Below are positions 27,969 through 46,591 of a DNA stretch of 64,000 nucleotides, one piece after another. The notes under the pieces are model-generated. The model had not been told where the DNA came from. It did no database searches and saw nothing but the letters and a program-made list of their open reading frames with translations. A program made the position numbers and the translations under genes. The stretch spans positions 32,001 to 96,000 of IMG/VR virus record IMGVR_UViG_3300031867_004305. One strand, given 5' to 3'. Source of the DNA: a virus. Taxonomy: Duplodnaviria > Caudoviricetes. Numbering within the stretch: the first letter of the stretch is position 1; every line of letters begins with the position of its first letter.

Positions 27969-28012
27969 TTGCTTACATCTCCGTTTGGGAGATACAACTT
28001 CCTTCATTTTAC

Positions 28013-28517: not shown

Positions 28518-28523
28518 AGGGCT

Positions 28524-29627: not shown

Positions 29628-29833
29628 TGTTTTTCTCTCCTTTTTTTTCTCTCTTTCGTTGACACTATTATAGCATATAGCCGGGCGTTTGTCAATACTT
29701 TTTTATGTAAAGTATGTGTAAACTTCTCCGCCGGTCAAATATGATTAGTTAGTGAAAACTAACTCCACTGGCCGAGTTAGTTCAGACTAACTAACTCTCT
29801 AATATAAAAAATAAAGGGTTTGCACCCTTTATT

Positions 29834-30124
29834 TTAGAAATTGAAATTATCAATTGTACCACAATAGCGACAGGAAACAATCACATCGTCGTAAATAATT
29901 TCCGTGTTATTATCATCCATCAGACAAGCACACAAGTCATTAACATTCCAGTCCTCACAGCCGTAAAACTGCCAAATGTTCCCGTTCGCGTCAACCACGT
30001 CCACCAAATCAGTAGAATAGTCAACATTGACAACCTTAGTAACCATTGCGTAATCCTCAGCGAGAGCATTAACACCAACCACCATCAGCACGACCACCAT
30101 CAGCATCATAATCGTGTTCTTCAT
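29834..30124 (-). CDS. Small secreted/membrane-anchored protein
   Basis: Signal peptide-like N-terminus (ALA/E), own promoter. Confidence 0.7.
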   Translation of the reverse strand: MKNTIMMLMVVVLMVVGVNALAEDYAMVTKVVNVDYSTDLVDVVDANGNIWQFYGCEDWNVNDLCACLMDDNNTEIIYDDVIVSCRYCGTIDNFNF

Positions 30125-30285
30125 TGTTGTTTATCTCCTTTGCTTTTGTTGTATATAGTATAACACACATCTATTCACTTGTCAATACCTTTTTGTGTTT
30201 TCTTTTGTAAAATCTATATTAAGCGTCTGGCCGGCCAGAAAGTTAGTTTAGACTAACTAACTGATCCAATAAAAAAAGATGGGGA

Positions 30286-30444
30286 TTATTCATCCCCATC
30301 AATCCAGCCCATCGCAAACTCATAGGCGATCTCAATGATCGTGTAATCGTTCGCGCGCTCGCACTCATTGAAGAAGTAGATCGTGGCAGGGTGTTCGAAA
30401 CCGAAAGCGCGAATCACGTTGTTTTTCATCTCATTGATCTTCAT
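30286..30444 (-). CDS. 52-aa hypothetical protein
   Basis: AAGGAGG SD, own promoter, terminator hairpin over the stop (MKINEMKNNVIRAFGFEHPATIYFF...). Confidence 0.65.
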   Translation of the reverse strand: MKINEMKNNVIRAFGFEHPATIYFFNECERANDYTIIEIAYEFAMGWIDGDE

Positions 30445-30539
30445 TATGGGTTCCTCCTTGCTTTTGATGTAATTATTTTACCACACGCCAAGACCTTTGT
30501 CAAGAGGTTTTGAAAAAATTTTTTTGTTAAGATTCGGGA

Positions 30540-30710
30540 CTACTCGATGTAGTCCCGAACCTCGTCGTTCGTCAGGTCCAGTTCCTCAGCGATGACTTCC
30601 ACCGCCTCATCGATCCAGAACAACTGTTCCTCAGCGGTCAGGTCCTCCCACGCGCCCATCAGATTCTCGTTGATGTAGGCATCCATCATGGTATTGATCT
30701 TGTTAGTCAT
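30540..30710 (-). CDS. 56-aa highly acidic protein
   Basis: MTNKINTMMDAYINENLMGAWEDLTAEEQLFWIDEAVEVIAEELDLTNDEVRDYIE; SD and promoter. Confidence 0.7.
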   Translation of the reverse strand: MTNKINTMMDAYINENLMGAWEDLTAEEQLFWIDEAVEVIAEELDLTNDEVRDYIE

Positions 30711-30884
30711 TGTGGTGTCCTCCTTGCTTTTGTTGTATTCATTATAACACCTATCCGGCTATTTGTCAATACCTTTTTTGTATTTTTCTTTGTAAAGTTT
30801 GTGTTAAGCCTCCGGCCGGCCCGCGCGAGTTAGTTTATGCTAACTAACTATTATATTAATAAAAAAAGAGGGCTTAAACCCTCT

Positions 30885-31031
30885 TTATGCTACATACCCT
30901 TCGATCATTGCGGCTACTTCATGTGCCCACATATAATCATTGTATGCGCCATAGAACCATTTTTCTCCATCAACAACACGGTAAACGATAAAGCGATAAT
31001 TGGTAGCGTAGGCAGGCATGTTGTTAATCAT
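30885..31031 (-). CDS. 48-aa protein (paralog of 31202-31318)
   Basis: FIVY...FYGAYND..WA.E.AAM shared with the neighbour; own promoter and terminator. Confidence 0.7.
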   Translation of the reverse strand: MINNMPAYATNYRFIVYRVVDGEKWFYGAYNDYMWAHEVAAMIEGYVA

Positions 31032-31201
31032 TTTGATTACCTCTCTCATTTGATGTATATATTATAGCATAAAGTATCGAGAATGTCAATACCCTTTTAA
31101 AAAATTTCTTTGTAAAATCTAAGTTAATGATCTGGCCGGCCAGAAAGTTAGTTATAACTAACTAACTATTAAAATATATAAAAAAGAAGGCTTTTCAGCC
31201 T

Positions 31202-31318
31202 TCAAGCAACTTTTCCGCCCACCATAGCAGCATATTCTTTAGCCCACTGCAGATCATCAAAAGCACCGTAAAAATACTTGATGCCCTTTTCCTCAACGTA
31301 TACGATGAACTTCTTCAT
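31202..31318 (-). CDS. 38-aa protein (paralog of 30885-31031)
   Basis: MKKFIVYVEEKGIKYFYGAFDDLQWAKEYAAMVGGKVA; AAGGAGG SD. Confidence 0.7.
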   Translation of the reverse strand: MKKFIVYVEEKGIKYFYGAFDDLQWAKEYAAMVGGKVA

Positions 31319-31489
31319 TGTTGTTTCCTCCTTGCTTTTGATGTATTTATTATAACATGCCTTTGTTATTTTGTCAATACCTTTTTGTGTTAATTGTGTA
31401 TTAACTTATTTATTTCCAGGATCGTGATTAGTTTAATTAAACTAACCGCTTTTCTGGCCTGCATAATGGGCCAGAACTTATTGATTCAT

Positions 31490-31629
31490 TACTTTATCAT
31501 AGTAAAGTGATTCAAATTTGCCCTACAGGCCAATTTTAGCGGGCCAGGCAACCGGCCGGTTTATTATTCGCGCGAAATCGCCTTAAAACGAAAATTTGAA
31601 TCACACTATCACTTTACCATAATAAAGTG
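31490..31629. repeat. Nested inverted repeat centred on AACCGGCCGGTT
   Basis: GTGATTCAAATTT (31507-31519) and AAATTTGAATCAC (31592-31604) share their dyad centre with the palindrome at 31550-31561. Confidence 0.75.
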
Positions 31630-32029
31630 ATAAATATAATGAACTGGCCGGACCAGTTAGTTTTGACTAACTAACTATTACAAAAATATTACAGCTTTAT
31701 GCGACTTTCTTTTGTGAGGGCGTTTTTAAGGGGTAAAACAACCGGCCGGTTTATTATACACGAAAAAAACGGCTCTACGCGGCGATACGAAAAAAATGCA
31801 CAAAAAGTTAAACCGAAATATTAATTCCAGGTTAAGAAACACTCTACGAAAACGATTTCCGCAGGCCAAATTAACATATCCATAACACTTTTTCTTAATC
31901 TTTTGTGCAATTTTTTTCAGTCGTAGGCCACGGGCATTTTGAACAAAAATTAAATATGAAATACTTTTGTAATAATTAAATAGTTTTGTAATAATCACTG
32001 GCCGGGAGTTTGACTATCTTTGACCTTTG

Positions 32030-32320
32030 ACTTTCATCATAGTAAAGTAGTAGCATAGTAGCATGGTAAAGTAATAGCATAGCATCATAATAAAGTGGCA
32101 CCATAGTAGTATAACATCATAGTAAAGTAGTAGTATGATAACATGATAGCATAGTAAAGTGATAATATAGCATCATAGTAAAGTGGTAGCATGGTAGTAT
32201 GATAAAGTGGTAGCATAGTAAAGTGGCAGTATGGTAAAGTGGCAACATAATAAAGTGATAGCATAGTAGCATAGTAAAGTGGCACCACTTTACCATGATA
32301 AAGTGGTAGTATAGTGATAA
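32030..32320 (+). repeat. Degenerate tandem repeat of CATAGTAAAGTGRYAG-like units
   Basis: About 10 or more TAAAGT-containing units plus CATAG fragments; the unit equals the right half of the CACTTTA-N6-TAAAGTG palindrome. Confidence 0.85.
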
Positions 32321-32660
32321 CAAGCCGGCCAGTTAGTTTAGACTAACTAACAAGAGTTAGTTATAACTAACTATGGGGTCCCCCGTATATTATACCACAT
32401 CAATGTTAACTGCGTATTATCCTCATATTAAAAGTATATGAAGTTTTTTGTTAAGAATAGGTTAAGAAATGATCCGGCCCGCGAGTTAGTTTAAACTAAC
32501 TAATCAACTGGTGGTTGCACAACCTGGAGTAGAATCAACCTGGAGTAGCAAATTCTACCATAGGTTGAATCTCACAACTTTACATGGATTTAATCAAAAA
32601 ATGCTTACCAGTTAACATTGATCTGTTATAATGTATACAGTTGAAAGAGAGGTGCTTGAA

Positions 32661-33128
32661 ATGAAGATGACCCGCGAAATTAACCTGACTTACACCTACG
32701 ACGCCACGCGTAAGGGAGCCAAGTACAGTATCAACGGAGGCGAAAGCTGGCTCAATGGTGGCGAGTTCGCGGAAGCTGTCGCCAAGGCACTCCACGGGCT
32801 GGATCCCCGGAAGGACGCTAACACCCGCTTCGACGAAGGCTCCGACGTGCCCGAGTTCCACGCGAGCGTCAAGAGCTCCAAGGCGAGCCTGACCAACATG
32901 AAGCTGGCTGACAGCTTCGAGGCAAGCCTGACTGCCTACTTCGAGCAGGTGGCAAGCTCCGAGTTCTGGTACGTGACTACCACCGACGAGCTGGCTACCA
33001 TCTACAAGATGAACGCCACGAAGTTCGAGCGGTTCCTGCGGAAGTTCGCTAAGCTCAACGAGCGTGGGGTCATCCGGATCGCGGCCACCAGCTCCAAGAT
33101 GCTGGCATGGTTGGACGCCAACGCCTAA
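32661..33128 (+). CDS. Small PD-(D/E)xK-like protein, related to 28524-28964
   Basis: NGGEFAE...GSDV...SVKSSKASL motif. Confidence 0.5.
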   Translation: MKMTREINLTYTYDATRKGAKYSINGGESWLNGGEFAEAVAKALHGLDPRKDANTRFDEGSDVPEFHASVKSSKASLTNMKLADSFEASLTAYFEQVASSEFWYVTTTDELATIYKMNATKFERFLRKFAKLNERGVIRIAATSSKMLAWLDANA

Positions 33129-33728
33129 CGGCGAGCGTCCAACCACCTGGCTGGGAAATTAACAAAACCTTAACTTGACAAGCTACGCCAGCTGTGATAT
33201 AATGAGTACAACGAAAGGCAAGGAGGAAATGAGAATGAAGATGTGGCTGGTTGACTACCGCGGCACCGACGGTGCCACCTACACCCGCAGGATGTCCTGC
33301 GAGGTCCTGGAGCTCCTGGAGGAGCTTGGGCCCCAATACGGGGTTGAGGTCTTGGGAGCTATTGAGCTTCCTTGACCTCAAGGTATAAAACGAAAGCAAT
33401 TAACCAAATACAAATTTCACTAAAACTTAACTTGACAACTGAATAAATCCATGATATAATAAGTCCATCAAAGGAAAGGAGAAAACAAAATGTTTGAGAT
33501 TTACAAGATCAGCACTGACAGGATTATCCTGTCTGGTCTCTCCCTGCGTGAGGCGCAGGCTCTCCGCCTGACTTGGGCGGATCGGGCGGACTTGATTGTC
33601 CGCCCCATGGCCTAACGGAGAGCATAGGCTCTCCGCTGGCCGGCCCGTTTATTAACAAACTCTTAACTTGACAATTCTCTTTTTAAGTATTATAATATAT
33701 ACAGAAAGTAAGGAAAGAGGTAATCAAA

Positions 33729-34100
33729 ATGTTGTTCGGACGTAAAAAGAGGATGCTTAAGCGTGAACGCGAAATGTATTGGGAGTGTTCTGGTGAATGG
33801 TACTTTCGCGTGGAATACCATGAGGATTTCGCTCCCACGCCTTCTTACATGTACTTTGAAAGTTTGCGAGACGCAGAATATTGGGCAAAGACTGATCGCC
33901 GTGCTTCTTTCATTCTGTGTGTAACTGACAGACAGGGCAACAGGATTATAACTGACTGGACTGGTTATACTGGTGCTGGTACTGTTAATATGTGGACTAA
34001 TATAATGGGGCGTCAAGTTCTTGACTTGCGAAAAGACCATAATGAGTTGTGGGTATCCAACAACAGTCCTCGTGCCAAAGAAGTAAAACAGGGATTGTAA
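33729..34100 (+). CDS. Hypothetical protein
   Basis: Own promoter at 33669, SD, hairpin at the stop. Confidence 0.7.
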   Translation: MLFGRKKRMLKREREMYWECSGEWYFRVEYHEDFAPTPSYMYFESLRDAEYWAKTDRRASFILCVTDRQGNRIITDWTGYTGAGTVNMWTNIMGRQVLDLRKDHNELWVSNNSPRAKEVKQGL

Positions 34101-34212
34101 AATCCCTGTTAATTTACTGGCCGGCCCGCAACTTAACATACTCTTAACACAAAACCTATTGACTTTCCTGGCTCAATGGTGTATACTAGTATCAGAAAGT
34201 GAGGGAAAGAAA

Positions 34213-34389
34213 ATGAAGTTTTTGATGATTCCTTATGTGTTAGTTGCTTGCCTGTTTGGTTTCTTTGGTATTCTCCATGCGAATGATGTTGATGAAAATG
34301 ACTACTTCAAAGTTAATTGGCGTATGATTGTTTTCCTTATTATGATGATGTTGTCACCCATTCCAGCTAAGATCTTTGGTTTGCTTTAA
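34213..34389 (+). CDS. Two-TM micro membrane protein
   Basis: VNW.MI...M..LSP..AKI.G.L shared with 29463-29627. Confidence 0.7.
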   Translation: MKFLMIPYVLVACLFGFFGILHANDVDENDYFKVNWRMIVFLIMMMLSPIPAKIFGLL

Positions 34390-34461
34390 CAAAAACTTAA
34401 CTTGACAACCACCAACCAATCTGCTATAATAAATACAGAAAGAGCGAAGGGAGTAATTCAA

Positions 34462-34713
34462 ATGAAGTTCTACATGGTCATGTGTCACAGAGGTCATTGC
34501 GGAGTGGGTCACAGCACTGAAATCAAGTTCGCAATCGCGGCGAACAATCTGCTCGAAGCGTGTGACAGGGCAAAGCGGATGCCGAGCGTGAAGCATACGC
34601 GAATGGCAATCTACGGCAAGGAAATCACCGAGGAAGAATATAGAGAGTATCGCTCCATTAGTGCTTACGAACGCTTCAATCAGAGCCAGCACAAATCTCA
34701 ACGCAGACGTTAA
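34462..34713 (+). CDS. Small His/Cys-containing basic protein
   Basis: Promoter at 34402, SD; CHRGHCG. Confidence 0.7.
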   Translation: MKFYMVMCHRGHCGVGHSTEIKFAIAANNLLEACDRAKRMPSVKHTRMAIYGKEITEEEYREYRSISAYERFNQSQHKSQRRR

Positions 34714-34836
34714 GTCTGCGTTAACTTTCTGGCCGGGCATCAACTTAACATAGAATTAACTTGACTTCTTACAAAATCTATGCTATACTATATACAACAA
34801 GTGAAGGAAACACTTTAAAACCAGGAAGGTAAGAAA

Positions 34837-35100
34837 ATGAAGAAGATTATTACTATTGCTTTGATTATCACTCTGTGCTTGACTCTCACCGCGTGCCAAA
34901 TTGGCAATCGCAAAATCGGTTTCGACACTACGCAAACTTTCCGTTGGGCTATTGTTCAATTGGGCAACGGTGAACTGATTGAAGGTTCTGTAGATTCTTG
35001 GCGAGACTTTGACAACTCTGACACTATTCAAGTTACTATTAATGGCATTACTTACTTAACTCACTATAGTAATGTCATCCTAACGACCGAGAAGCCTTAA
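34837..35100 (+). CDS. Lipoprotein
   Basis: Signal peptide with lipobox LTAC. Confidence 0.7.
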   Translation: MKKIITIALIITLCLTLTACQIGNRKIGFDTTQTFRWAIVQLGNGELIEGSVDSWRDFDNSDTIQVTINGITYLTHYSNVILTTEKP

Positions 35101-35197
35101 TAGCTTCTCGGTTATATTTATGTTAAATTCGCAGCCGGCCCGTGACTTAACAAACAATTAACTTGACTTCGCATCAAAAATATGCTATTATATATAT

Positions 35198-35370
35198 GTC
35201 GAAAGGAAAGAGGGAGTGATTCCATTGGGTTAGAGTAAGGGGCAACAGACCACTTGGCGGTGGAGAACTGACCTCACGATTACATGAAAACCGTTCCCCA
35301 TTAACCTTGGGCAAGTTAATGATGTTTGAAGCCTACCGCGAGAGACTGATCAACTCTCGCGGTTTGTTAT
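35198..35370 (+). ncRNA. Candidate structured ncRNA (~170 nt)
   Basis: Promoter TTGACT-17-TATTAT at 35163, no credible ORF, several stems, ends in terminator ACCGCGAGAG..CTCTCGCGGT-TTGTTATTT. Confidence 0.55.
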
Positions 35371-35900
35371 TTTAATGTTAATTTTCTGGCCGGCCAGAAA
35401 TGTTAATTCTATGTTAACTATCCTAAAAACACTTGACATTTTATTTTACTTATGATATAATAATTACAGAAAACAAACGAGAGGAGACATCCTAAAATGA
35501 CAAAGCACAATTTCATTTCTACATGGGAAGATCTGAGCGATCAGGAACAAGTTTACATGTGGTGGGAATATAACGCGGCGAACCCTAATGAGGAAATTTC
35601 ATTTTCTGAGTTCGATGAAATGATGGCGGGATTCACTTTCGAGTGAATCCCATTTCATTTTAATTTTTAATTTAATGTTAAGGTACTGGTCGGCCAGCGA
35701 GTTAGTCATAACTAACCCACCTCTTTTTTATTTATTATACCATTCCAATTTCATTTTCGCAAGCACAATAATGTTAATTTCATTTTAAATTTTCACCCGG
35801 CCCGAAATGTTAAATCCAGGTTAAATCATCCTTTAACCTCTTGACTTTTGCCGTCGCCTGCTGTATAATATATACAGAAAGAGGAAAGGAAGTAAACAAA

Positions 35901-36341
35901 ATGAAGCAGACGATCTGGTTTGACATGGACGGCACTATCGCGAACCTCTACGGCGTGGAAAATTGGCTCCCGATGCTGATTGACAGCAATCCCGCTCCCT
36001 ACAAGCTGGCGACTCCGCTGGTCAACATGAACAAGTTGGCGCGGACGCTGAACAAGCTCCAGCGAGCTGGCTACAAGCTCGGTATCATCAGCTGGCTGAG
36101 CAAGTCCAGCACTCCCGAATATGACAAAGCTGTGACCGCCGCGAAGCTATGGTGGCTCCGCAAGCACCTTAACTCGGTAAAGTGGGATGCGGTTAACATC
36201 GTCGCCTATGGTCGCAACAAATGGGACGTGTGCGGTGAAGGAATCCTGTTTGATGACGAAAAACCGAACCGTGACAATTGGGGCGGTGAAGCCTTCCACC
36301 CTGACGAAATGATGAAAGTTCTGTCGAGCCTGACCGCTTGA
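35901..36341 (+). CDS. HAD-superfamily phosphatase (5'(3')-nucleotidase-like)
   Basis: WFDMDGT motif I and ILFDD motif IV. Confidence 0.8.
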   Translation: MKQTIWFDMDGTIANLYGVENWLPMLIDSNPAPYKLATPLVNMNKLARTLNKLQRAGYKLGIISWLSKSSTPEYDKAVTAAKLWWLRKHLNSVKWDAVNIVAYGRNKWDVCGEGILFDDEKPNRDNWGGEAFHPDEMMKVLSSLTA

Positions 36342-36672
36342 CAGAACTTTAACATTCGGCCCAGCCCGCAATTTAACACATAATTAACTTGACTTCATAC
36401 ATAATTTTTGCTATACTATATACAGAAAGAGGGAATGAAAGATGAATGAACTTGATAACATTCGTGTGTGGATTATGCGTCAACCTGCTTCTCCCGCAAT
36501 TCGCACAATGCGACTTCACCTATTCGATCTCTATCGTTATGGCGAAGAATACGAAAAGATTTACCAAATGGTAGAAGAACTAACAAATAATTAACTTGAC
36601 ATCCTCTCCAAACTCTGCTATAATAAGTACATAAGAGAAGGAAAACTCTTCCAAACCAGAAAGGGAAACAAC

Positions 36673-36996
36673 ATGACTAAGATGGAGATTCGCACCAACG
36701 TTAAGACCGCCGTTGCCGAGCAGTTTACTGAGTTTTTCGCCAACGCAATCCAGATCGACGACTTCACCTATGTGATCCCGATGGGAACCGCTGAGGATAA
36801 TGGTCGTCCGCTGTTCGCCAAGGTTGAGATTTCCTGTCCCAACTGGTACGCGACCGCCAAGACTGAGCCCTTCAACATCGACGCCAAGGTGGAGGCGTAT
36901 AACGCCGAGCTTGCCGAGCGTGCGGAGAAGGCCGCGGAAAAGGTACGCAAGGCCGCGGAAAAGGAAGCCAAGCGTAAGGAGAAGGAAGGGGAGTAA
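36673..36996 (+). CDS. Paralog family A protein (Lys/Glu/Ala-rich helical tail)
   Basis: Aligns by eye with 37374, 41763 and 44547; shares the leader motif. Confidence 0.75.
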   Translation: MTKMEIRTNVKTAVAEQFTEFFANAIQIDDFTYVIPMGTAEDNGRPLFAKVEISCPNWYATAKTEPFNIDAKVEAYNAELAERAEKAAEKVRKAAEKEAKRKEKEGE

Positions 36997-37373
36997 CCCC
37001 TTCCTTCTTTTGTTATATCTGTGTTAAAAATCGGGCCGGGCTCCCGCTTAACATTTTCTTAATGAAAGAATGCGGGAAAGAAAATCAAAGCACCAAGAAT
37101 AATAATAGCAGTAGCTATATCAATAGTGATATTACGAGTATTAGTGTACATTTTTACAATGTCTTTCCACGTCAGACGATAGAACCACATCCGCACTTTG
37201 TAACCAGTAGTATTTCGCACATTTCGTTTCATATTGCTTACCTCACTTTCTATAAATAGTATAGCATATTTTATCCTTAAAAGCAATGACTTAAAGTTTT
37301 TTATATTATGACAAAATTATGCCAATCACCCGGCCCGGTTAGTCATAACTAACTGCCAATCAAAAAAGGAGGC

Positions 37374-37697
37374 TTACGCCTCCTCCTTCTTTGCCTTAGC
37401 CTTGGCTACCTTGGTAGCCTTTTCGGCATCCTTGATAGCCTTGGCATCAGCCTTGATCTTCTTCTCAGCTTCCCACTCTTCCGCGACCTCATAGGGGTCG
37501 AACGCCTTAGACACCTTGGTGTCCTTGTACGCCTTGGACTTGACGGTGACTTCCGTCCAAACTTCCTGACCGTCAACAGTCTGGAGGATGGCGAAAGACG
37601 CATCCGCGAACTTGACAGCCTCGTTCTCCATCAGGGCAGGCATGATAGCTTCGATGGTCATCTGACGAGCGGTGGACTTGATCTCATTAGCGTTCAT
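37374..37697 (-). CDS. Paralog family A protein
   Basis: As above; inverted cassette. Confidence 0.75.
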   Translation of the reverse strand: MNANEIKSTARQMTIEAIMPALMENEAVKFADASFAILQTVDGQEVWTEVTVKSKAYKDTKVSKAFDPYEVAEEWEAEKKIKADAKAIKDAEKATKVAKAKAKKEEA

Positions 37698-37948
37698 ATT
37701 ATTCCCTTTCTGGTTTTTGAGCCTTTTCCTTGGCTTCTGTAATTATTATAGCAGATTCAGCGACGCTTGTCAAGTTAATTCTTTATTAACTTTGGCTCTG
37801 TCCCCAGTGCCCAACTCACGCCGTCCTTACCTCTGCCCTTGGAACAATTATATTATAGCAGAATTTCCGCCAGGAGTCAAGCACTTTACAAAAACTTAAC
37901 AATCGCGGGCCGGCCAGAGAGTTAACATAGAAATAACAAAGAAACCGC

Positions 37949-38485
37949 TTACGCGGTTTCTTCATCTTCACATTCTTCAATGTAAGCATAATCTACAATC
38001 ACAGGTTGATGATGTCTAATGCCCCAATTCCAATCATGAAAATCAGTTAAACCAATACTTCTAATCCAACTCAATTCATCATAAGAGAGCATTTGTTCAA
38101 ATGTATATTTGTGACAATTAGGGCCTATTGCCTTGATACGCGGCATAATAGAAAAGATATAACCGCGATAGGTTATAAGCGTAGTTTCCGCGAACAGATA
38201 TTCATAACCAGCATCGCAAGCCATTTTATAAACCGCCGCTTCACGTTCACAGCCACCAATGTCCGCAACACATTCCGCATCATAATCCCACTTAATGACA
38301 TAATCAGAAGTAAGAAGGGCAATACGTGCGGAACCAGCTTCTGAAGAAACACGCCGCGAAGGATGATCGCAAATATAGCGACCTACTGCCTGTTTTACAT
38401 CCCATTCGGAAAACAGGTTATTTTCGATATAGGGAAAAATAGACTTCAAAAACTGGAAAGCACGAGTACGATAATCGGATTTCAT
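37949..38485 (-). CDS. Minimal protein kinase-like protein
   Basis: GSARIA, YVIK, CERE, DFHDWNWG and IVDY match kinase-fold motifs; paralog of 60578. Confidence 0.65.
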   Translation of the reverse strand: MKSDYRTRAFQFLKSIFPYIENNLFSEWDVKQAVGRYICDHPSRRVSSEAGSARIALLTSDYVIKWDYDAECVADIGGCEREAAVYKMACDAGYEYLFAETTLITYRGYIFSIMPRIKAIGPNCHKYTFEQMLSYDELSWIRSIGLTDFHDWNWGIRHHQPVIVDYAYIEECEDEETA

Positions 38486-38679
38486 TTTATTTGCTCCCTT
38501 CGCTTTTCTATATATAGTATATACCAGTATGCTTATAATGTCAAGTTAATTTTATGTTAAGTTTCGGGCCGGGTGATTGTTAATTTCATTTTAAGTTATT
38601 ACCCGGCCCGCCAATGTTAAATCCAGGTTAACTTTCCCATTAAGCACTTGACATTTCATTCAGATTCTGCTATACTATA

Positions 38680-38726
38680 TACAGTTGAGGGCGAGGGAAA
38701 CACTTCCCAAAACCCGAGACAACTTC
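38680..38726 (+). ncRNA. Candidate short ncRNA, module 1
   Basis: Promoter at 38649, no ORF before the next promoter, AGTTG/CAACT closing stem. Confidence 0.4.
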
Positions 38727-38773
38727 ACGAAATCTTAACTTGACAAGGTTGGGAAATCGTGATATAATGAGGA

Positions 38774-38903
38774 TGTTGAGAGGACAAGAGCCAACTTGAA
38801 TAAAAATGGCCACAAACAGACTGCCAAGTAGAGAACGGGATTTATGAGCGTACACCTTTGGTTAAGGCACTGTTATTGTCTCCCGAAATAAAAACTCTCA
38901 ACA
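38774..38903 (+). ncRNA. Candidate structured ncRNA (~130 nt), module 1
   Basis: Promoter at 38740; closing stem TGTTGAGAG/CTCTCAACA; inner GACAA/TTGTC, AACAG/CTGTT and TGCC/GGCA; possible pseudoknot CGGGA/TCCCG. Confidence 0.55.
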
Positions 38904-38993
38904 AACTCTTAACTTGACATTATACCAAATCTGTGGTATAATAAATACATCAAAGGGAAGGAAAACCCACCAAACCAGAAAGGACAAAACACT

Positions 38994-39329
38994 ATGAAGA
39001 AGAACACCATCACCGCTCTGTACAACTACTTCGTGAACTCCGACGACACCATCGACCTGTCCGCTGTGGTTGAGGACATTCGTGCTGAGTATGAGCGTAC
39101 CACCGCGAAGTCTCAGGAGAAGGCTAACGCCTACGATACCGCGAAGCCCATCGTGTTCGGCGTCATGACTGAGCCGATGACGGTCAAGGAGATTTTCGCC
39201 AAGTGCGAGAACGACCTGCCCGATGGCTTCACCTCGCACAAGATCCAATATGCTTTGCTGAACTACTGGTGCGACGAGGTTGCCAAGATTGACAACGGCA
39301 AGGCTCCCTTCACCTACATGGTGAAGTGA
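38994..39329 (+). CDS. Paralog family B protein (helical N-terminus, winged-helix-like C-terminus)
   Basis: MTVKEIF..C...LPDGFTSHKIQY.LL...DEV.K motif shared with 42528 and 43451. Confidence 0.75.
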   Translation: MKKNTITALYNYFVNSDDTIDLSAVVEDIRAEYERTTAKSQEKANAYDTAKPIVFGVMTEPMTVKEIFAKCENDLPDGFTSHKIQYALLNYWCDEVAKIDNGKAPFTYMVK

Positions 39330-39517
39330 GACTAAACCGCCCTTCGGGGCGGTTTTCTTTTACATTTCATTCTGTTAAGTTTTCGTTAATTTTCGGGCCG
39401 GGCGTGGAGTTAACAATCATTTAACTTGCCCGGCCGCGAGTTAACACAATCTTAACTTGACTTTTATTCCTGGCGAATGTATAATAGATACAGAAATTAG
39501 GAAAGGAACTAAACAAA

Positions 39518-40228
39518 ATGATTCTTAACATCACTGACCGTTACATTCTGATTCTGGACGTTGAAACCGCAAACGACACCATCGACGCTATTGTCTATGA
39601 CATTGGCTTCATGTTGGTTGACCTTTACACAAACGCAATCTGTGAGCAGGGTTCTTTCGTAATTCGTGACACTTTCGTTTATGAACGCGAACTCGTAAAG
39701 GTTGCCTACTACGGCGATAAGATTCCTGAATACGTCGCAGACATTCAGCAGGGAAAGCGTCAAATGATTGACTTTTTGACGGCAAGGCGTCATATTCTTA
39801 ACTTGATGGAAAAGTATGATTGCCATACGGTTGGGGCGTACAATTGTAACTTTGACCGCAACGCTCTTAACACAACTCTCCGTTTCTTAACGAAATCTAA
39901 ATATCGCTACTTCTTCCCTTACTCTACTAATTTTGTGTGTATTTGGAATATGGCTTGCGATACCATCTGTCAGACAAGCGAATATAAAACGTTTGCCGAG
40001 ACTAACCGCCATTATTCCAATCATGGCAAAAATTATCGTGCCACCGCAGAGGTTGTTTACTCATTCTTAACAAATAACCCTGACTTCCACGAGGAACACA
40101 AAGGTTACGATGATGTTAAGATTGAAAAGGAAATTATGGAAAAGTGTCTGGAATATGACAAGAACTTTAAGGGAATAAAAAGAAACTGTTGGCAAAAAGT
40201 CAAACGGGGAGCACTCGCTCTCCGTTAA
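39518..40228 (+). CDS. DEDDh 3'-5' exonuclease
   Basis: LDVET, AYNCNFD and EEHKGYDD motifs. Confidence 0.85.
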   Translation: MILNITDRYILILDVETANDTIDAIVYDIGFMLVDLYTNAICEQGSFVIRDTFVYERELVKVAYYGDKIPEYVADIQQGKRQMIDFLTARRHILNLMEKYDCHTVGAYNCNFDRNALNTTLRFLTKSKYRYFFPYSTNFVCIWNMACDTICQTSEYKTFAETNRHYSNHGKNYRATAEVVYSFLTNNPDFHEEHKGYDDVKIEKEIMEKCLEYDKNFKGIKRNCWQKVKRGALALR

Positions 40229-40332
40229 TTTTATGTTAAGTTTCGGGCCGGCCGACCTTTACACAGAATTAACTTGACTTCTCTCTTGAATTTTGATATA
40301 CTATATATAGAAAAAGAAAGGAGATTTCAACT

Positions 40333-40587
40333 ATGACTGTTAAGGAATTGATTAAGGAACTCCAGAAAATGCCCGAAGATGCTGTTGTACTCGGCGATAT
40401 GTATCTTAATCAGTATTGCGTTATTGATACAGTTGAATATGATGACGCGACGAACACCATCTCGTTCTATGGCGAGGATACTTTTGAAGAACCTGACATT
40501 CCCGATGATGTAGACGAGACTAACTACGACCCCTACTGCGGTTGTGATATGTTTGAAATCTGCGGATCAATTGATGAGGAATGGTAA
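40333..40587 (+). CDS. Small acidic protein
   Basis: MTVKELIKEL start, Asp/Glu-rich, own promoter. Confidence 0.7.
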   Translation: MTVKELIKELQKMPEDAVVLGDMYLNQYCVIDTVEYDDATNTISFYGEDTFEEPDIPDDVDETNYDPYCGCDMFEICGSIDEEW

Positions 40588-40691
40588 TTAACCATTCCTT
40601 AACATTGGCCGGCCCACCATTTAACACAATCTTAACTTGACTTCCGCGTGCGAATCGTGTATAATTATATCAGAAAGTGAGGAATGCCATT

Positions 40692-40847
40692 ATGTTAGCG
40701 TTTAGCATTATTATTTTCATTTGGGGACTGTCGGGAATTTGTGGGTTGATAAATTGTAAAAAAGAAAGGATAATTTGGGAACTCTTAATTTTTGGAATTA
40801 TGATTCCTTTTCTACCTGTTTTTGCTAAACTATGTGGTTTAATATAA
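40692..40847 (+). CDS. Two-TM micro membrane protein
   Basis: Manual translation MLAFSIIIFIWGLSGICGLINCKKERIIWELLIFGIMIPFLPVFAKLCGLI. Confidence 0.6.
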   Translation: MLAFSIIIFIWGLSGICGLINCKKERIIWELLIFGIMIPFLPVFAKLCGLI

Positions 40848-40908
40848 ACTTAACTTGACTTTTATTTCCCTATCTGTTATAATAATTCCAGAAAGTGAGG
40901 AAACGCAA

Positions 40909-41049
40909 ATGGAAAAGAAAAATCAGAACCGCGAAACTTGGGTCGGCTATCGCCCCTCCGTCATTCCCGCGAAGAAGAAGAACAAGAAACGCGACCGCAA
41001 AGAAGGCAAGCAGATTTGCCGTAATGCTATGAAAGGAGAAAAGGATTAA
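40909..41049 (+). CDS. 46-aa basic peptide
   Basis: Promoter at 40855, SD; RPSVIPAKKKNKKRDRK. Confidence 0.6.
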   Translation: MEKKNQNRETWVGYRPSVIPAKKKNKKRDRKEGKQICRNAMKGEKD

Positions 41050-41762
41050 TGAGCTTTTGGAAAAAACAAGAATATTGGTATATTATTGATGAAAAATTTT
41101 TCGGATATAACCCTTATTGGTGGGGCGGTTGTGCGGTTGATAATAATTTAAATGGAAATAATAAAGGACTATATAGAACAATATGTCGCGTAGCAAAAAA
41201 TAAAAAACGTAAATCTCGCATAATAGAAAGGAAAATAAAAAATGCGAACCAATCTTGAAATCGCCGCCGAACTTATCGCCGCGGACGTCCGTAATCTCAA
41301 TAATATTGAGGAATATTGTGGCTATCCCGATTTCAATCGGCTTGATGGTATTGAACGCGACAAACTTTCTAAAATGGTTGATGAACTATTAATCATTATC
41401 TATCGGCGGCAAAACCGCCAGCGAATGGAATGGGAGAATAGTTAGTTCTCCCTAACTCCGCCCGGCCCGAGATTTAACAAACTTTTTACTTGACTTTTCC
41501 TGGATTTTGTGTTATAATAATTATAGAAAGTGAAAGGAGAAAGTCAAATGATTATTAACATCACTATTGACACCGATAACAATTTTGTTTGGGCAGTAGA
41601 TGAAAATCAGGAAACCAGCATTGACTATTCCGCGTGTGATCTTTCCGCAATATCCGTAGAAGAAATTATTAACGATTTCTTAACTTGACTTCTCCCGTCG
41701 AATCTGCTATACTATATCCAGAAGGTGAAGGAAAACACCACAAACCAGAAAGGATAACGCCC

Positions 41763-42167
41763 ATGAGTAAGGCTTCTCTTGAAACTGAAATCCGCAACAA
41801 CGTTCTCCAGACCATCATTGACGCCGTGAATCCCATCAGCGACATTCTCCCGATTAGTGCCAGCGAACTCGCTCTCCCCATCGTTGACAGCGAGGGCAAC
41901 GAAAAGTTTGCCGTTATCAAAGTCAGCATTCCTCGCGGTGAGCGTGACGGCAACGGCGGTTACATCCCCTTTGACGGTTACGCCGCCGCCGAGGATTGGA
42001 AACTGGTACTTGCGGATCGTGCCGATAAGGCGGCGAAACGCAAGGAAAAGGCGGAACGTGCCGAAAAGGAAAAGGAAAGGAAACGACAGGCACGCAAGGT
42101 TGTAAAAGACCTTAACACGGTGGGCTTTAAGGCTCTCGTGTCCCAGCCGATTAATGAGGGTGAGTAA
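41763..42167 (+). CDS. Paralog family A protein
   Basis: Alignment by eye; leader motif. Confidence 0.75.
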   Translation: MSKASLETEIRNNVLQTIIDAVNPISDILPISASELALPIVDSEGNEKFAVIKVSIPRGERDGNGGYIPFDGYAAAEDWKLVLADRADKAAKRKEKAERAEKEKERKRQARKVVKDLNTVGFKALVSQPINEGE

Positions 42168-42278
42168 TCACCCTCTTTGTTATTTTTATGTTAATTTTCA
42201 GGCCGGCCCGCTTTGTTAAGATTGTGTTAAATACTCCTAGAACTACTTGACTTTGAGTGGAGATTCTGCTATACTAAT

Positions 42279-42339
42279 ATTGTTGAGAGGGCAAGAAAAC
42301 CTCAAGACAAAAGGGTGAAAGTCCCACCCCTCTCAACAA
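42279..42339 (+). ncRNA. Candidate short ncRNA, module 2
   Basis: Promoter at 42248; 12-bp closing stem TTGTTGAGAGGG/CCCTCTCAACAA. Confidence 0.55.
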
Positions 42340-42527
42340 AATCTTAACTTGACAAACTCCAAGATTTCTGCTATAATGATTACATCAGAGAGGGAAACGA
42401 GAGGTTCAAAGTTCGAGAGGTTCCGAGAGAACTTAACAGAGACTTAACTTGACAAACTACTCCCAATCTGATATAATAAAGACAAGAGAGGGGAAGGAAA
42501 ACCCCACAAACCAGAAAGGGAATCATT

Positions 42528-42923
42528 ATGAAGAACACCATGACTTATGCCGTCGCTCTGTCCACCGCTATCGAGACCATGAAGGACACCAATCCCGAAG
42601 TTGCGGAGCGTCTGACCGCTCTGCGTGCGACCCTTGCGAAGCGTTCCCAGCGTAGCGAGGATTCCAAGGCTAAGGCTTCTGCGAAGCGGAAACAGCAGAA
42701 CGCCGAGAAGCGTGCCGAGATGTGTGCGGAGATCGTGCCGATTCTGCGTGAGGTCATCACCACGGACATGACCGCGAAGGAAATCTTCGCCGTTGCTCAG
42801 GATCGTCTGCCGAAGGACTTCACCGCGAACAAGGTTCAGGCGATTCTCCTGCGTGAGATGAAGGACGAGGTTATCAAGACCGAGACCAAGGGCAAGGCGA
42901 ACACCTATCGCCTTGCGGAGTGA
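42528..42923 (+). CDS. Paralog family B protein
   Basis: TAKEIF...LPKDFTANKVQAILL...DEVIKTETKGKANTY. Confidence 0.75.
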   Translation: MKNTMTYAVALSTAIETMKDTNPEVAERLTALRATLAKRSQRSEDSKAKASAKRKQQNAEKRAEMCAEIVPILREVITTDMTAKEIFAVAQDRLPKDFTANKVQAILLREMKDEVIKTETKGKANTYRLAE

Positions 42924-43086
42924 TAGAAGGGGCTAACGCCCCTTCTTTTTTTTATGGCGAGTTAGCCAGGACTAACTCGGCCGGGTAATGTAAAATGTTT
43001 GTTAAGTAATCGCCCGGCCCGCGATTTAACATAATCTTTACACAGAAAAGTATTGACAACCAGCGGATTTTCTGCTATACTATTAT

Positions 43087-43174
43087 TGTCGGTGGGGGAA
43101 ACGGGAGCGCGCAGGCGCAAGCGCGTTGTGGTAATTAGAAACATGCAACAGTTGATCGGCCACCTAAAGCCGAC
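43087..43174 (+). ncRNA. Candidate GC-rich ncRNA, module 3
   Basis: Promoter at 43053; GTCGG/CCGAC closing stem; internal GCGCGC..GCGCGT hairpin; no ORF. Confidence 0.5.
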
Positions 43175-43230
43175 TTAACAAAATCTTAACTTGACATTAC
43201 AGCCTAAAAGTGCTATAATGAATACATCAA

Positions 43231-43349
43231 GGGGAGCGAACGTGGCATCAGGGGAGCCACCACGGTAAGTCGCAAGACGATTGCGTAGGCCACTTGCAAA
43301 AGAGGGTCGTCCCATGAGGGATGGAGTTCAATTCTCCCGCTCTCCACCA
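43231..43349 (+). ncRNA. tRNA-like RNA with alanine-type acceptor (G3:U70), extra arms and encoded CCA
   Basis: 5' GGGGAGCG pairs with CGCTCTCC, followed by A-CCA; T arm GGAG-TTCAATT-CTCC; promoter TTGACA-17-TATAAT at 43191. Confidence 0.7.
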
Positions 43350-43450
43350 GATTATAACAGAATCTTAACTTGACAAATAGTTGAGAATCTGATATAATAA
43401 ATACATCAAGAGGACAAGGAAAAGTCCTAAAAACCAGAAAGGGATTTACT

Positions 43451-43840
43451 ATGAAGAATACCATCACTCGCGTTGACGCTCTGAACTACGCTATCAATGC
43501 CATCGACCAGTGTACCGAAACCGATGTTGAGGTCGTCGCTATCCTCGAGAAGATTCGCGATCAGATCGCGAAGCCTCGCAAGACCAGCGACACCGCCAAG
43601 GCGAACGCCAAGGCGAAGCGTGCGAACGCTCGTGCGGAACTGATGAAGGATGTTCTGCCCATCCTGCGGGATGCTCTGACCGAGGGCGGTACCGCCAAGG
43701 AAATCTTTGAGCGGTGTGCCGATATGCTCCCCGAAGATTTCACCAGTGCCAAGGTACAGTACATTCTGCTTCACGAACTGGCGGACGAGGTCGTTAAGAC
43801 CGAAGCCAAGGGTAAGGCGAATGTCTACACCCTGCGGTAA
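43451..43840 (+). CDS. Paralog family B protein
   Basis: TAKEIFERC...LPEDFTSAKVQYILL...DEVVKTEAKGKANVY. Confidence 0.75.
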   Translation: MKNTITRVDALNYAINAIDQCTETDVEVVAILEKIRDQIAKPRKTSDTAKANAKAKRANARAELMKDVLPILRDALTEGGTAKEIFERCADMLPEDFTSAKVQYILLHELADEVVKTEAKGKANVYTLR

Positions 43841-43974
43841 AAACAGAGGGCGAAAGCCCTCTGTTAATTTTTTGTTAAAAATCGGGCCGGGCCGTTAGTT
43901 AACCAAATCTTTACTTGACTTCTATCAAAATTGGGAGTATAATAATTATAGAAAAAAGAAAGGGGATACCGATT

Positions 43975-44184
43975 ATGGCTATCAACATTCGTCACACTTA
44001 CAGCACTCACGTTGAGATTACTTTCTATGCTGAAGATGGCATTACCCTGCGTTGTCGTGATTGCGGACAGATGGACGACATCGCCGAGCAGGTTTGTGAA
44101 GTTCTGGTTAAGCACGACTTTGCTTATGCCGATATCTGCTCCGCCGAAACTGGCGAGGTTCTCATGGTGATTGAGCGGACTTAA
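43975..44184 (+). CDS. Hypothetical protein
   Basis: Own promoter at 43915, SD. Confidence 0.65.
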   Translation: MAINIRHTYSTHVEITFYAEDGITLRCRDCGQMDDIAEQVCEVLVKHDFAYADICSAETGEVLMVIERT

Positions 44185-44291
44185 CGTCCGCTTAACATCT
44201 TCGCCCGGCCCACCCATGTTAAGTTTCTGTAAACCTATTGACTTTTGATCGCGATTTATGGTATTATATATATGTCAGGAGGGAACAGGAA

Positions 44292-44471
44292 ATGTTAGAT
44301 AAAGCCATTAAATCAGGCAAAGAACATCGTAAACCTTATTACGATACACGACGTTTTGATTGTACTTGTCGCAATCATGGTTCTTGTGATTGGTGTAAAG
44401 CAAATCGACTTTACCAGATTACCAGAGAAAAAGACAAAGCAAACAACAAACTTAATGAATACTTTACTTGA
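44292..44471 (+). CDS. Small Cys/His-rich basic protein
   Basis: CTCRNHGSCDWC; own promoter at 44238. Confidence 0.65.
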   Translation: MLDKAIKSGKEHRKPYYDTRRFDCTCRNHGSCDWCKANRLYQITREKDKANNKLNEYFT

Positions 44472-44546
44472 CAAATCCCAAATCCTGTGCTATAATATAA
44501 TCAAGAAGTGAAGGAAAACACTTACAAACCAGAAAGGGTCTACACT

Positions 44547-44882
44547 ATGAAGATTTCCAAGGCTATCGTCGATTCCAACATCCGCACCGCTATCTTCAAT
44601 GCTCTGAACGTTGCCAACATCGAAGGATTCCACAAGATCAACGACCGCCAGTATGGTTGTATCGTTGAGGATGTCAACGGCGAACGTCGCTACGCTCGCG
44701 TGGGTGTCATCGTTGCCGAGGTCCGCGAGGACTGTACCGCCGATGAACTGATGGCGTCTGAGATCGCGGACTACAACGCGAAGCAGGAAGCCAAGGCGAA
44801 GCGTGCCGAGGAACGCAAGGCGAAAGCCGAGCGTGACAAGGCGAAGCGTGAAGCCACCAAGAAGGAAAAGGAAGGGGAGTAA
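44547..44882 (+). CDS. Paralog family A protein
   Basis: Ends KEKEGE like 36673; leader motif. Confidence 0.75.
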   Translation: MKISKAIVDSNIRTAIFNALNVANIEGFHKINDRQYGCIVEDVNGERRYARVGVIVAEVREDCTADELMASEIADYNAKQEAKAKRAEERKAKAERDKAKREATKKEKEGE

Positions 44883-45012
44883 TCCCCTTCCTCCCGAAGG
44901 TTAACTTCATGTTAATTTTCGGGCCGGGCCAGAACTTAATCAAATCTTAACTTGACATTTCATTCAAAGCGGAGTATACTATATACAGAAAGAAACGAAA
45001 GGGGACTTCACA

Positions 45013-45246
45013 GTGGGCGTTTACATCGTGACTACCAATTACTTCATGAATGGCTTCTTCGGCATTTACACCACTGTCAAGCGTGCGCGTATTGCGCTTG
45101 AACAGTACTTTGCGGATGACGATGATGTCGTTGCGTTTGAGGACGTAGACAATTACAGCTATACCTTCACCACTCGTAACGGCGCACAGTTCAGCGCGGA
45201 AATTATGTGGGCCGATATTGACGAAGAATTCAAGGAGGATGAATAA
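45013..45246 (+). CDS. Small acidic protein
   Basis: Promoter at 44952, GTG start after SD. Confidence 0.6.
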   Translation: MGVYIVTTNYFMNGFFGIYTTVKRARIALEQYFADDDDVVAFEDVDNYSYTFTTRNGAQFSAEIMWADIDEEFKEDE

Positions 45247-45249
45247 TTT

Positions 45250-45441
45250 ATGAAGTGTCCTAATTGCGGAAATGAAATCTACGCGATCGATACCCTTGAT
45301 AGTGATTGTTGCGGTGACTCTTATTTTGATCGCGTTGAAGGCACTTGCCCCAATTGCGGCAAATCATGGCGATGGATTGAGGTTTTCACCTTTGACCATT
45401 GTGAAAACATAGAAGAAATAAAAGAGGACGACCATCTTTGA
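45250..45441 (+). CDS. Zn-ribbon protein
   Basis: Two CPNCG motifs. Confidence 0.7.
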   Translation: MKCPNCGNEIYAIDTLDSDCCGDSYFDRVEGTCPNCGKSWRWIEVFTFDHCENIEEIKEDDHL

Positions 45442-45504
45442 TGGTCGTTAACTTTATGTTAAAAAAACGGGCCGGGCAACATCTTAACAAAAAATTAAAG
45501 TGGG

Positions 45505-45858
45505 CTATTCGCCCACTTTAACCCATTCCAATTTTATCCAATCATATTCATACAAACCTACTTCATCATGCGGTAATTCATAACCAAAATAAGAATCAAT
45601 CAATTCCATAGCTTCATGCGAAATAATTTTCTTTACACGAATTTTTTCGCATCTGTCGAAAGCATATTTAATAGCATCTAATCCTTGCTCTACTCCGTTT
45701 AAAAAAATCCAGATATACCCGCCATTTTTCCCAAAGAAATCATAAGCATTAAAAAACTCTTCCAACAGATCAAAAGCCTTGCCCTCATATTCTTCGCATT
45801 CTTCAAAGTTATCAAACTCAGTGTCATCATAAGCAACATAAGTAACAACTTCACGCAT
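45505..45858 (-). CDS. Acidic hypothetical protein (inverted cassette)
   Basis: Own minus-strand promoter near 45918, SD. Confidence 0.7.
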   Translation of the reverse strand: MREVVTYVAYDDTEFDNFEECEEYEGKAFDLLEEFFNAYDFFGKNGGYIWIFLNGVEQGLDAIKYAFDRCEKIRVKKIISHEAMELIDSYFGYELPHDEVGLYEYDWIKLEWVKVGE

Positions 45859-46591
45859 ACTCAGTATCTCCTTTCCTTTTCTACATATATAATATCATAA
45901 ACCCAACCCAAAGTCAAGTTAAATCCAGGTTAATAAACCGCCCGCCGCGAACTTTACATAAACTTTACACAAACTCTGTTGCTTCTTAACAGTCGAATAT
46001 GGTATTATATACATACAAAAGGAAAGGGGATTTCAAAAATGTTGAAGTTCATTATCATGCTCGCGGTTTCCATTTGGCTCACTTCCTCTCTGTTTATGCT
46101 GTTCTTTTGGGCGAATGCTTTCATCACTACCTTGCGGAAAGATGGTAAAATTTTCCTGATGCCGTTTGGTCAATTCCTCTATTTCCACTTCTGCCCTATT
46201 GTACATACTGTCAAGTGCTTTAAAATCATGCGACAAATGGCCGAATTGACGAAACGCGGAGTGTAAACTCCGCGTTAAGTTTTCGCCCGGGCAGTAATGT
46301 AAATTCTATGTTAAGGAATTACCCGGCCCGAAATTTAACAAAAAGTCAACATAAACCCTCGCACAGATTTAACATTACTATGGTATAATATCGGGGGAGG
46401 CACCAGTTAGCCTAAACTAACCGAGTTAGTTGTGGCTAACTAACTTTTTCGGGCTTCGGGCTTCCCCTCTTCAGTATAGCACACTTTGTGTTAAGAATCA
46501 AGCATTTTTGTGTTAAGTTTAGGTTAAGTTCACACTTTAGCATGGTAGCACTTTAGCATGGTAAAGTGGTAAATCCCTAAAGTCCTACTAT

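Follow-up and report, generated by a model that had tools for sequence, protein, structure and literature searches.

The cassette array and its leader copies

The DNA examined here, hereafter the window, is a stretch of 64,000 nucleotides (nt) that corresponds to bases 32001-96000 of a phage record in IMG/VR (IMGVR_UViG_3300031867_004305; 181,042 bp, rated complete). Between 28 and 46 kb of the window lies an array of single-gene cassettes that is richer in GC than the phage overall (36.6%). Each cassette consists of a sigma-70-type promoter, a short leader, one small open reading frame (ORF) and a terminator. Eight of the genes share a leader of about 36 nt, in which a hairpin is followed by a tail that runs into the Shine-Dalgarno (SD) sequence, and this leader is the subject of the present analysis. 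The DNA sequencing runs that contain the stretch come from bovine gut/rumen metagenomes, and a database comparison with deposited phages gave no near match to the region.

A search with the pattern AAGGAAA-N(3-8)-AAACCAGRAAGG found eight matches in the window and none in 100 shuffles, at the places where a first-pass annotation of this DNA had put them, and a pattern search of the whole record found zero further copies in the rest of the 181,042-bp phage. All copies are located between a sigma-70-type promoter and a start codon, 9-17 nt downstream of the -10 box, and the ATG follows 8-12 nt downstream of the tail sequence AGAAAGG. The promoter agrees with the consensus at 12 of 12 positions for six of the eight copies. 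There are ten such promoters in the region, and three of the four that do not serve leader copies drive small noncoding RNAs. The promoters upstream of the leader are the strongest in the cassette array.

The copies can be grouped by the genes that they precede, namely one lipoprotein-like gene and two families of paralogs, A (four members, 24-31% identity) and B (three members, 33-40% identity). The scores given with them, in bits, are those of a covariance model (R1) built from the leader copies, which separates true copies (29-55 bits) from chance matches (at most 17 bits). Copy 1 (34797..34832, plus strand; 39.4 bits) has the stem AAGTG/CACTT, the loop AAGGAAA (at 34804) and the tail AAAACC-AGGAAGG; it is transcribed from a promoter at 34761-34789 and precedes the lipoprotein-like gene at 34837-35100. 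The loop in the other seven copies is AAGGAAAA. Family A genes follow copy 2 (36631..36667, plus; stem AAGAG/CTCTT; 12/12 promoter 36596-36624; gene 36673-36996; 52.1 bits), copy 3 (37702..37738, minus; AGCC/GGCT; 12/12 promoter 37773-37745; gene 37374-37697, minus; 49.2 bits), copy 5 (41721..41756, plus; GGTG/CACC; promoter 41685-41713; gene 41763-42167; 53.7 bits) and copy 8 (44504..44540, plus; AAGTG/CACTT; 12/12 promoter 44468-44496; gene 44547-44882; 51.0 bits). Family B genes follow copy 4 (38951..38986, plus; GGG/CCC; 12/12 promoter 38914-38942, with two further promoters and small RNA genes upstream; gene 38994-39329; 45.8 bits), copy 6 (42487..42522, plus; GGGG/CCCC; 12/12 promoter 42449-42477; gene 42528-42923; 52.7 bits) and copy 7 (43409..43445, plus; AGGAC/GTCCT; 12/12 promoter 43370-43398; gene 43451-43840; 51.0 bits). 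The first-pass annotation had quoted all eight stems correctly, had recognized that one loop is a base shorter than the others, and had named the same set of four A genes, three B genes and one lipoprotein gene, which the identities within the families bear out.

It had also stated that the transcripts start with the hairpin. The predicted 5' end is indeed only 2-6 nt from the hairpin in this phage. However, tandem upstream promoters also precede the three B genes, so the hairpin is not always 5'-terminal, and in other phages a further hairpin stands before the motif. Assembled contigs from a rumen RNA-seq run (X24) lie on seven of the eight motif genes, which is a weak hint of expression as contigs give no expression levels and DNA carry-over is possible. 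These contigs cover the A and B genes and none of about 15 intervening cassettes that lack the motif, whereas the DNA runs cover all of them. This contrast is not taken to prove differential expression, since missing contig cover is not evidence and one of the RNA contigs reaches into a -10 box.

Pairing within the leader

The stem of the hairpin, P1, changes in sequence and stays paired. Related viral contigs were obtained by a protein-pattern search with family B, which gave 23 loci. These loci have about ten leader copies per phage, ahead of A, B and other genes. Relatives from all sources add about 150 distinct copies to the collection. Canonical copies from all sources form P1 with about 33 different Watson-Crick stems. 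In one alignment (A4), 87.7% of P1 cells pair compared with 68% in shuffles, and the covariation score of P1 is 0.43 compared with 0.12 in shuffles, with the observed score reached in 0 of 500. When the partner was moved by one column, pairing was 38-50%. The leader hairpin is real and P1 is selected for pairing, as the first-pass annotation had proposed from the eight stems. An inverted repeat acting as a DNA operator was considered and rejected because the half-sites covary and are not conserved. The hairpins of the window are weak when taken alone (-3.7 to -7 kcal/mol; z-scores -1.1 to +0.5), and z-scores near 0 are expected if the fold is completed by tertiary contacts or by a partner.

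The alignments differ in what they can show. Those made with MAFFT (A3, A4 and A9) push length differences to the 5' end so that loops of 7 or 9 nt fall out of register, and the model-guided alignments (A5 and A8) misplace some loops of the CG class described below. In A4, P1 can be scored pair by pair and a second helix, P2, is seen only as invariant; the statistics for P2 were obtained by script on parsed copies.

P2 became visible in loci anchored on family B, where a minority loop, AACGACA, is found every time with the tail AAACGAG in place of AAACCAG. The change of loop base 3 from G to C is compensated by the change of the second tail base from C to G, exactly as expected if loop bases 3-4 and the tail dinucleotide pair in antiparallel orientation. 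The pairing was tested by scans of the collection in which one side was fixed and the other left free, with the -35 and -10 boxes added as an anchor against chance matches. Loops with C at position 3 always have the tail CG (about ten distinct copies on six different stems and ahead of different genes). AAAGA loops on motif-type stems have the tail CT, an A:U class present in two contigs, and one AAAGAT loop has the tail TT, which gives A:U plus G.U. A GG loop with a tail other than CC occurs once in a true motif, where TC gives G:C plus a G.U wobble, and one copy (L169) with the loop CA and the tail CG retains one of the two pairs. Both P2 positions are complementary in 141 of 148 distinct copies, a count that leaves out the scan that forced the canonical form; 10,000 shuffles gave a mean of 108 and a maximum of 120. 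The seven exceptions are mostly doubtful chance matches of the pattern scan. The mutual information between loop base 3 and the second tail base is 0.84 bit (G:C 61, C:G 10, A:U 3), compared with at most 0.17 for every other combination tried. P2 is selected for pairing.

The P2 classes GG/CC, CG/CG and AG/CU are mixed within single genomes. Whole-record searches found eight GG/CC copies and one CG/CG copy in a relative of 180,932 bp, a mixture of six and two in another case, and one GG/CC copy with three AG/CU copies in a phage of 178,943 bp. This favors pairing inside the RNA over recognition by one sequence-reading protein. The loop-tail covariation, which the first-pass annotation had missed, points to RNA-RNA pairing within the leader.

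The fold that these features define is a mini H-type pseudoknot that consists of P1 (3-6 bp of free sequence), L1 (AA), P2 (2 bp), L2 (3-5 nt, mostly A) and an A-rich L3, and that abuts the SD sequence. In 130 of 149 copies, 9-10 nt (the 3' strand of P1 and L3) separate the loop from the tail dinucleotide. Almost every copy has AAA as the last bases of L3, and AGAAAGG follows the tail dinucleotide with zero spacing. The two bases before the 3' strand of P1 are AA in all eight window copies and in most relatives, with CA or TA in a minority, and the last of these positions has no conserved C. Minimum free energy folds also offered a mini-hairpin between the tail CC and the GG of the SD sequence, which was rejected because it comprises just 2 bp and the CG class does not preserve it.

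Distribution of the leader and the genes that it precedes

A scan of one genome per prokaryote species for the canonical form of the leader found it in 112 stretches. The matches with a stem of at least 3 bp have a start codon downstream and usually a promoter upstream, and nearly all are in contigs binned as Clostridia, including Acutalibacteraceae, Oscillospiraceae, Christensenellales, Ruminococcus and Lachnospiraceae. Matches that lack a stem serve as an internal control; they are scattered over other phyla and have no start codon. The isolate Ruminococcus sp. Marseille-P6503 has two leader copies, one beside a Zot-like assembly gene and the other beside a gene for an XRE-type regulator, neighbors that place both copies in mobile elements. 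The Zot-like gene (PF05707; L269 3645-4442), which adjoins its leader copy, suggests an integrated filamentous-phage-like element in this isolate. Only two of 151 sampled genomes of the bacterial family to which the isolate belongs have a leader match, and thus the leader does not mark a host regulon. Within the flanks that were read, the two Ruminococcus elements have no protein in common with the phage.

At least 74 protein clusters, mostly of small proteins, are encoded downstream of the leader, and Pfam gave no assignment among the leader-downstream proteins that were scanned. The leader is a portable element, which phages and other mobile elements of Clostridia from gut and rumen carry on many genes that are unrelated to each other. 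Rfam gave no match at the gathering threshold in the window, nor at E-values up to 5 in 34700-44700.

In other Clostridia phage contigs (L221, L233, L252, L265, L275 and L311) a second conserved hairpin, GGTTGAGGGAAACAACC, and variants of it lie between the promoter and the pseudoknot leader. The leader therefore need not be 5'-terminal. The starts of the small RNA genes of the window (TTGAGGG/TTGAGAGGG; 38684-38725 and 42283-42335) are similar to this hairpin.

Searches with Pfam and PHROG returned nothing above cut-offs for A, B or the lipoprotein-like gene, and the protein database yielded only unnamed homologues. The lipoprotein-like gene encodes a predicted signal peptide of that type and has a single weak Pfam match below the cut-off. 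The structural model of A (predicted local distance difference test score, pLDDT, 93) comprises a helix, a three-stranded sheet and a long helix rich in Lys and Glu, and a fold search with it gave no match. The model of B (pLDDT 82) has long helices or a coiled coil and a winged helix, for which the fold search gave weak matches only, to PadR, ArsR, Fur, forkhead and ROQ-like winged helices (E 0.05-0.09). The GC content at third codon positions is 0.60-0.82 in the A and B genes (36673-44882) compared with 0.22-0.61 in neighboring cassette genes; adaptation of codon use to high expression is one possible reason, and a different origin is another.

The first-pass annotation had proposed two partners for the leader, CsrA/RsmA and the A and B proteins themselves. 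Its description of a structured RNA leader that is under selection, common to this gene set and joined to the SD sequence stands, but neither partner does. A search of the phage with PF02599 (CsrA) gave no match, and of five motif-bearing bacterial assemblies one had a CsrA match, the isolate Ruminococcus sp. Marseille-P6503 not being that one. Among the same five assemblies, a B homologue was found in none and an A homologue in one. The leader does precede A and B genes in the relatives, but it also precedes other genes and is present in elements that have neither family, and with at least 74 clusters behind it, autoregulation by A or B has no support as a general rule. The predicted structures (coiled coil and winged helix in B, no fold match for A) do not by themselves mark either protein as RNA-binding.

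Sequences around the leader genes

Upstream of every B gene (38648-38910, 42247-42445 and 43053-43365) there are two more consensus promoters and short noncoding stretches, which are closed by long-range stems such as GTTGAGAGG...CCTCTCAAC. As these small RNA stretches have no terminator ahead of the next promoter, transcripts of the B genes may begin at three nested 5' ends. None of the stretches was recognized by Rfam or ARAGORN. The 3' end of one of them (43231-43349), GGAGTTCAATTCTCCCGCTCTCCACCA, resembles the T arm and 3' acceptor strand of a transfer RNA (tRNA) with an encoded CCA, and it pairs with GGGGAGCG at the start of the same RNA; ARAGORN called neither a tRNA nor a transfer-messenger RNA there.

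The promoters of the array have a TTAAC extension directly upstream of TTGAC, whereas those in the rest of the genome do not. The spacers between cassettes (28000-46500; for example at 35383-35400, 37040-37050 and 39400-39440) hold a repeated GGCCGG(C/G)C palindrome flanked by TTAAC/GTTAA boxes. Degenerate short repeats with CATAGTAAAGTAGTAGCAT-like units occupy 32020-32110, at the junction of minus-strand structural genes and the plus-strand cassette array, and may represent an origin or iteron region. An ORF of more than 4,536 codons (2-13609, minus strand) extends past the start of the window.

How the leader may act

Firmicutes have a long anti-SD tail, and S1 plays little part in their initiation. 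The SD sequences of the motif genes always pair with the 3'-terminal CCUUUCU (the last 7-8 bases) of a Firmicute-type 16S rRNA. The SD duplex is -9.2 to -10.1 kcal/mol in seven copies and -7.9 in copy 1, compared with about -12 in neighboring cassette genes. In the motif-carrying Ruminococcus isolate the 16S gene ends in CACCTCCTTTCTAAGG, and the mature 16S rRNA of Bacillus ends in ...CCUUUCU.

The reading favored here, although tentatively, is that the leader is a portable cis-acting translation-initiation element that works through the host machinery. The leader would act on initiation most simply via the 30S subunit. Its tail, AGAAAGG, would pair with CCUUUCU-3' of the 16S rRNA so that P2 comes to lie end to end with the SD/anti-SD helix. 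The 3' end of the rRNA would then abut loop base G3 with the same polarity, and a single continuous stack of P1, P2 and the SD/anti-SD helix could result. Such a stack might stabilize docking of the 30S subunit on mRNAs whose SD sequences are weaker than those of their neighbors, and it might also shield the 5' region. This model would account for the zero spacing between the tail dinucleotide and AGAAAGG, for the need of a 2-bp helix for a partner, and for use of the leader by unrelated elements in the same host clade. That the partner belongs to the host is argued by three observations, namely that the Ruminococcus elements and the phage have no protein in common within the flanks read, that at least 74 protein clusters lie behind the leader, and that only two of 151 genomes of the bacterial family carry it. 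The least secure part of the proposal is that the leader would enhance rather than repress translation.

Several points weigh against this reading. Flush stacking hinges on the exact 3' end of the mature host 16S rRNA, and one extra base would break it. The spacing between CC and the SD sequence is shifted by one or two bases in rare copies. A P2 of 2 bp is unstable alone, and the fold has to be completed by some partner, be it the ribosome, a protein, an ion or a ligand. The variant classes may have arisen from few events as leaders can spread by duplication, so that the compensatory changes that can be counted as independent are limited to two or more kinds, on six stems or more. The host is deduced from metagenome bins and from one isolate that carries other mobile elements. 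Finally, the ACC-AG context and three loop bases (A1, A2 and A5) show stricter conservation than simple stacking would appear to demand, and strict conservation of unpaired bases is typical of a binding site.

A bolder statement of the case, which is possible but on balance doubtful, is that the leader represents an undescribed minimal class of pseudoknot that serves as a plug-in translation controller on the genes of mobile elements. It would be either a ribosome-docking enhancer that extends the SD/anti-SD helix or the smallest known sensor, one that responds to a host metabolite or ion and gates early phage genes.

The conserved adenines bear directly on a rival explanation, in which the leader serves as a translational operator. 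An RNA-binding protein acting in trans, encoded by the host or by an unrecognized phage gene, would bind the pseudoknot and the conserved adenines beside the SD sequence, block the 30S subunit and shut off a class of early genes. The unpaired AA, the A-rich L2 and L3 and the ACC-AG sequence are strictly conserved in phages whose proteins are only 25-45% identical, for which an operator accounts at least as well as the ribosome-based explanation does. The fixed position beside the SD sequence, the weak fold that needs a partner and the placing of one element on many genes in the manner of a regulon also agree with it. The winged helix of Roquin binds RNA hairpins, and B is predicted to have a winged helix, but the match is weak. 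Phage T4 provides precedents in the hairpin operator of gp43, the pseudoknot of gene 32 and RegA, which acts on about 30 mRNAs (PMC3014915). However, neither a CsrA nor a RegA homologue was found in the phage, and the analysis yielded no candidate host protein. A phage-encoded partner would have to differ from element to element, since the leader is present in Ruminococcus elements that share no phage protein in the flanks read and in assemblies that have no A or B. As P2 classes coexist in one genome, a protein would have to read the shape of the pseudoknot and not these bases. Overall, an operator is an unlikely explanation.

A second alternative, which is improbable, is a minimal ligand-sensing pseudoknot similar to a riboswitch, in which a small molecule or ion would complete P2 and tune translation of phage genes to the state of the host. 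The architecture is like that of the smallest riboswitches, with about 30 nt that include an A-rich L3, a short P1 and, by the SD sequence, a very short P2. In addition, the fold cannot be stable unaided and the unpaired purines are highly conserved. The genes controlled, however, have no common metabolic theme, as their products are mostly unknown small proteins in at least 74 clusters, and the leader occurs solely on mobile elements, with no example in a host operon. It lacks the specificity cytosine of preQ1-I, Rfam gave no riboswitch match up to E 5, and with an SD sequence that P2 does not cover a switching logic is not evident.

There is also little to recommend the view that the leader only stabilizes mRNA, with the 5'-proximal hairpin and a bound ribosome protecting the transcript from 5'-end-dependent decay by RNase J or RNase Y. 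The aprE leader of Bacillus and the STAB-SD and SP82 polypurine stabilizers protect mRNA in this way. The closeness of the hairpin to the predicted 5' end (2-6 nt) in this phage, the polypurine loop with its SD-like AAGGA, and genes that look built for high expression, with consensus promoters and their own terminators, are all in keeping with such a role. The hairpins are weak, however, and the motif is often not terminal, as a hairpin or a longer leader is ahead of it in other phages and the three B genes have tandem promoters. Stabilization does not account for the conserved loop, the ACC or the loop-tail covariation, and the idea of a STAB-SD fails for the AACGA and AAAGA loops as these cannot pair with the anti-SD sequence.

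The operator for a CsrA dimer bridging the GGA of the loop and the GGA at the SD sequence, suggested by the hairpin-loop AAGGA and by a second GGA in or just after the SD sequence in seven of the eight window copies (about 22 nt downstream, a spacing that suits the dimer), is very improbable because the AACGA and AAAGA loops of the CG and AG classes lack GGA and are kept in diverged phages beside canonical copies, because many relatives read AAAGGC, AAAGGT or AAAGGGT in place of the second GGA, because csrA is missing from the phage and from four of the five motif-bearing assemblies, and because this mechanism has no place for the loop-tail covariation.

Initiation through the host machinery thus remains the reading that we favor. 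An interchangeable pseudoknot leader of 36 nt on dozens of unrelated genes, which has no family in Rfam, provides a compact and testable model of how RNA structure upstream of the SD sequence relates to initiation in Firmicutes. Judged by the predicted promoters, the leader is a marker of the early genes with the highest expression in a large group of uncultured phages, and it may aid in their annotation. If it is true that the leader enhances translation, it would also provide a short expression part for Clostridia.

Comparison with known systems

The leader most closely recalls small RNA structures at ribosome-binding sites. Like the preQ1-I riboswitch (RF00522), it is an H-type pseudoknot of about 30-35 nt with a short P1 and an A-rich 3' loop that runs along P1, and with a very short P2, in which the loop pairs with the 3' tail, right at the SD sequence of a Firmicute-type mRNA (PMC11625349). 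In preQ1-I a conserved specificity cytosine (UC or AC) directly precedes the 3' strand of P1 (PMC11625349), whereas the loop consensus of the leader, AAGGA(A)AA, is all purine and lacks this cytosine. P2 of preQ1-I covers the SD sequence, but the 2-bp P2 of the leader stops before it. The leader has no link to queuosine genes and no covariance-model match, and there are many copies of it per genome ahead of unrelated genes.

In phage T4 the gene 32 pseudoknot and the gene 43 operator, a hairpin followed by an A-rich strand and the SD sequence, are likewise structures in phage mRNA leaders that govern initiation (PMC3014915). These operators are autogenous, each serves a single gene, and they are bound by gp32 and gp43 (PMC3014915). 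In contrast, the leader is found on 8-10 genes per genome and at least 74 clusters, and in elements that have no A or B. The RegA regulon of T4 is similar in that one post-transcriptional signal is present at the ribosome-binding sites of many early phage mRNAs, but RegA sites are unstructured and A+U-rich and include the AUG (PMC3014915), whereas the leader is structured and is located upstream of the SD sequence. A search of the phage for a RegA homologue found none.

Sites for CsrA/RsmA resemble the GG class of the leader in having GGA in a hairpin loop and a second purine-rich site at the SD sequence. In the leader, however, GGA is dispensable (as in the CG and AG classes) and the loop pairs with the tail, and neither the phage nor most of the carrier genomes have CsrA. 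The guanidine-II riboswitch (mini-ykkC) has a functional tertiary contact of only two C-G pairs, which form between the ACGR motifs of two separate hairpin tetraloops. Guanidinium completes this 2-bp kissing interaction just as preQ1 completes the fold of preQ1-I. The CG class of the leader reads ACGA in both loop and tail, but one of the pairing partners is single stranded, the main class is GG/CC, and there is no Rfam match. Elements of this kind are thus already known, as ribosome-binding sites can carry small pseudoknots or hairpin operators (PMC11625349, PMC3014915). Judged against Rfam and the literature searched, the new features are the consensus, a P2 that abuts the SD sequence and does not cover it, the portable use of many copies, and the distribution among mobile elements of Clostridia.

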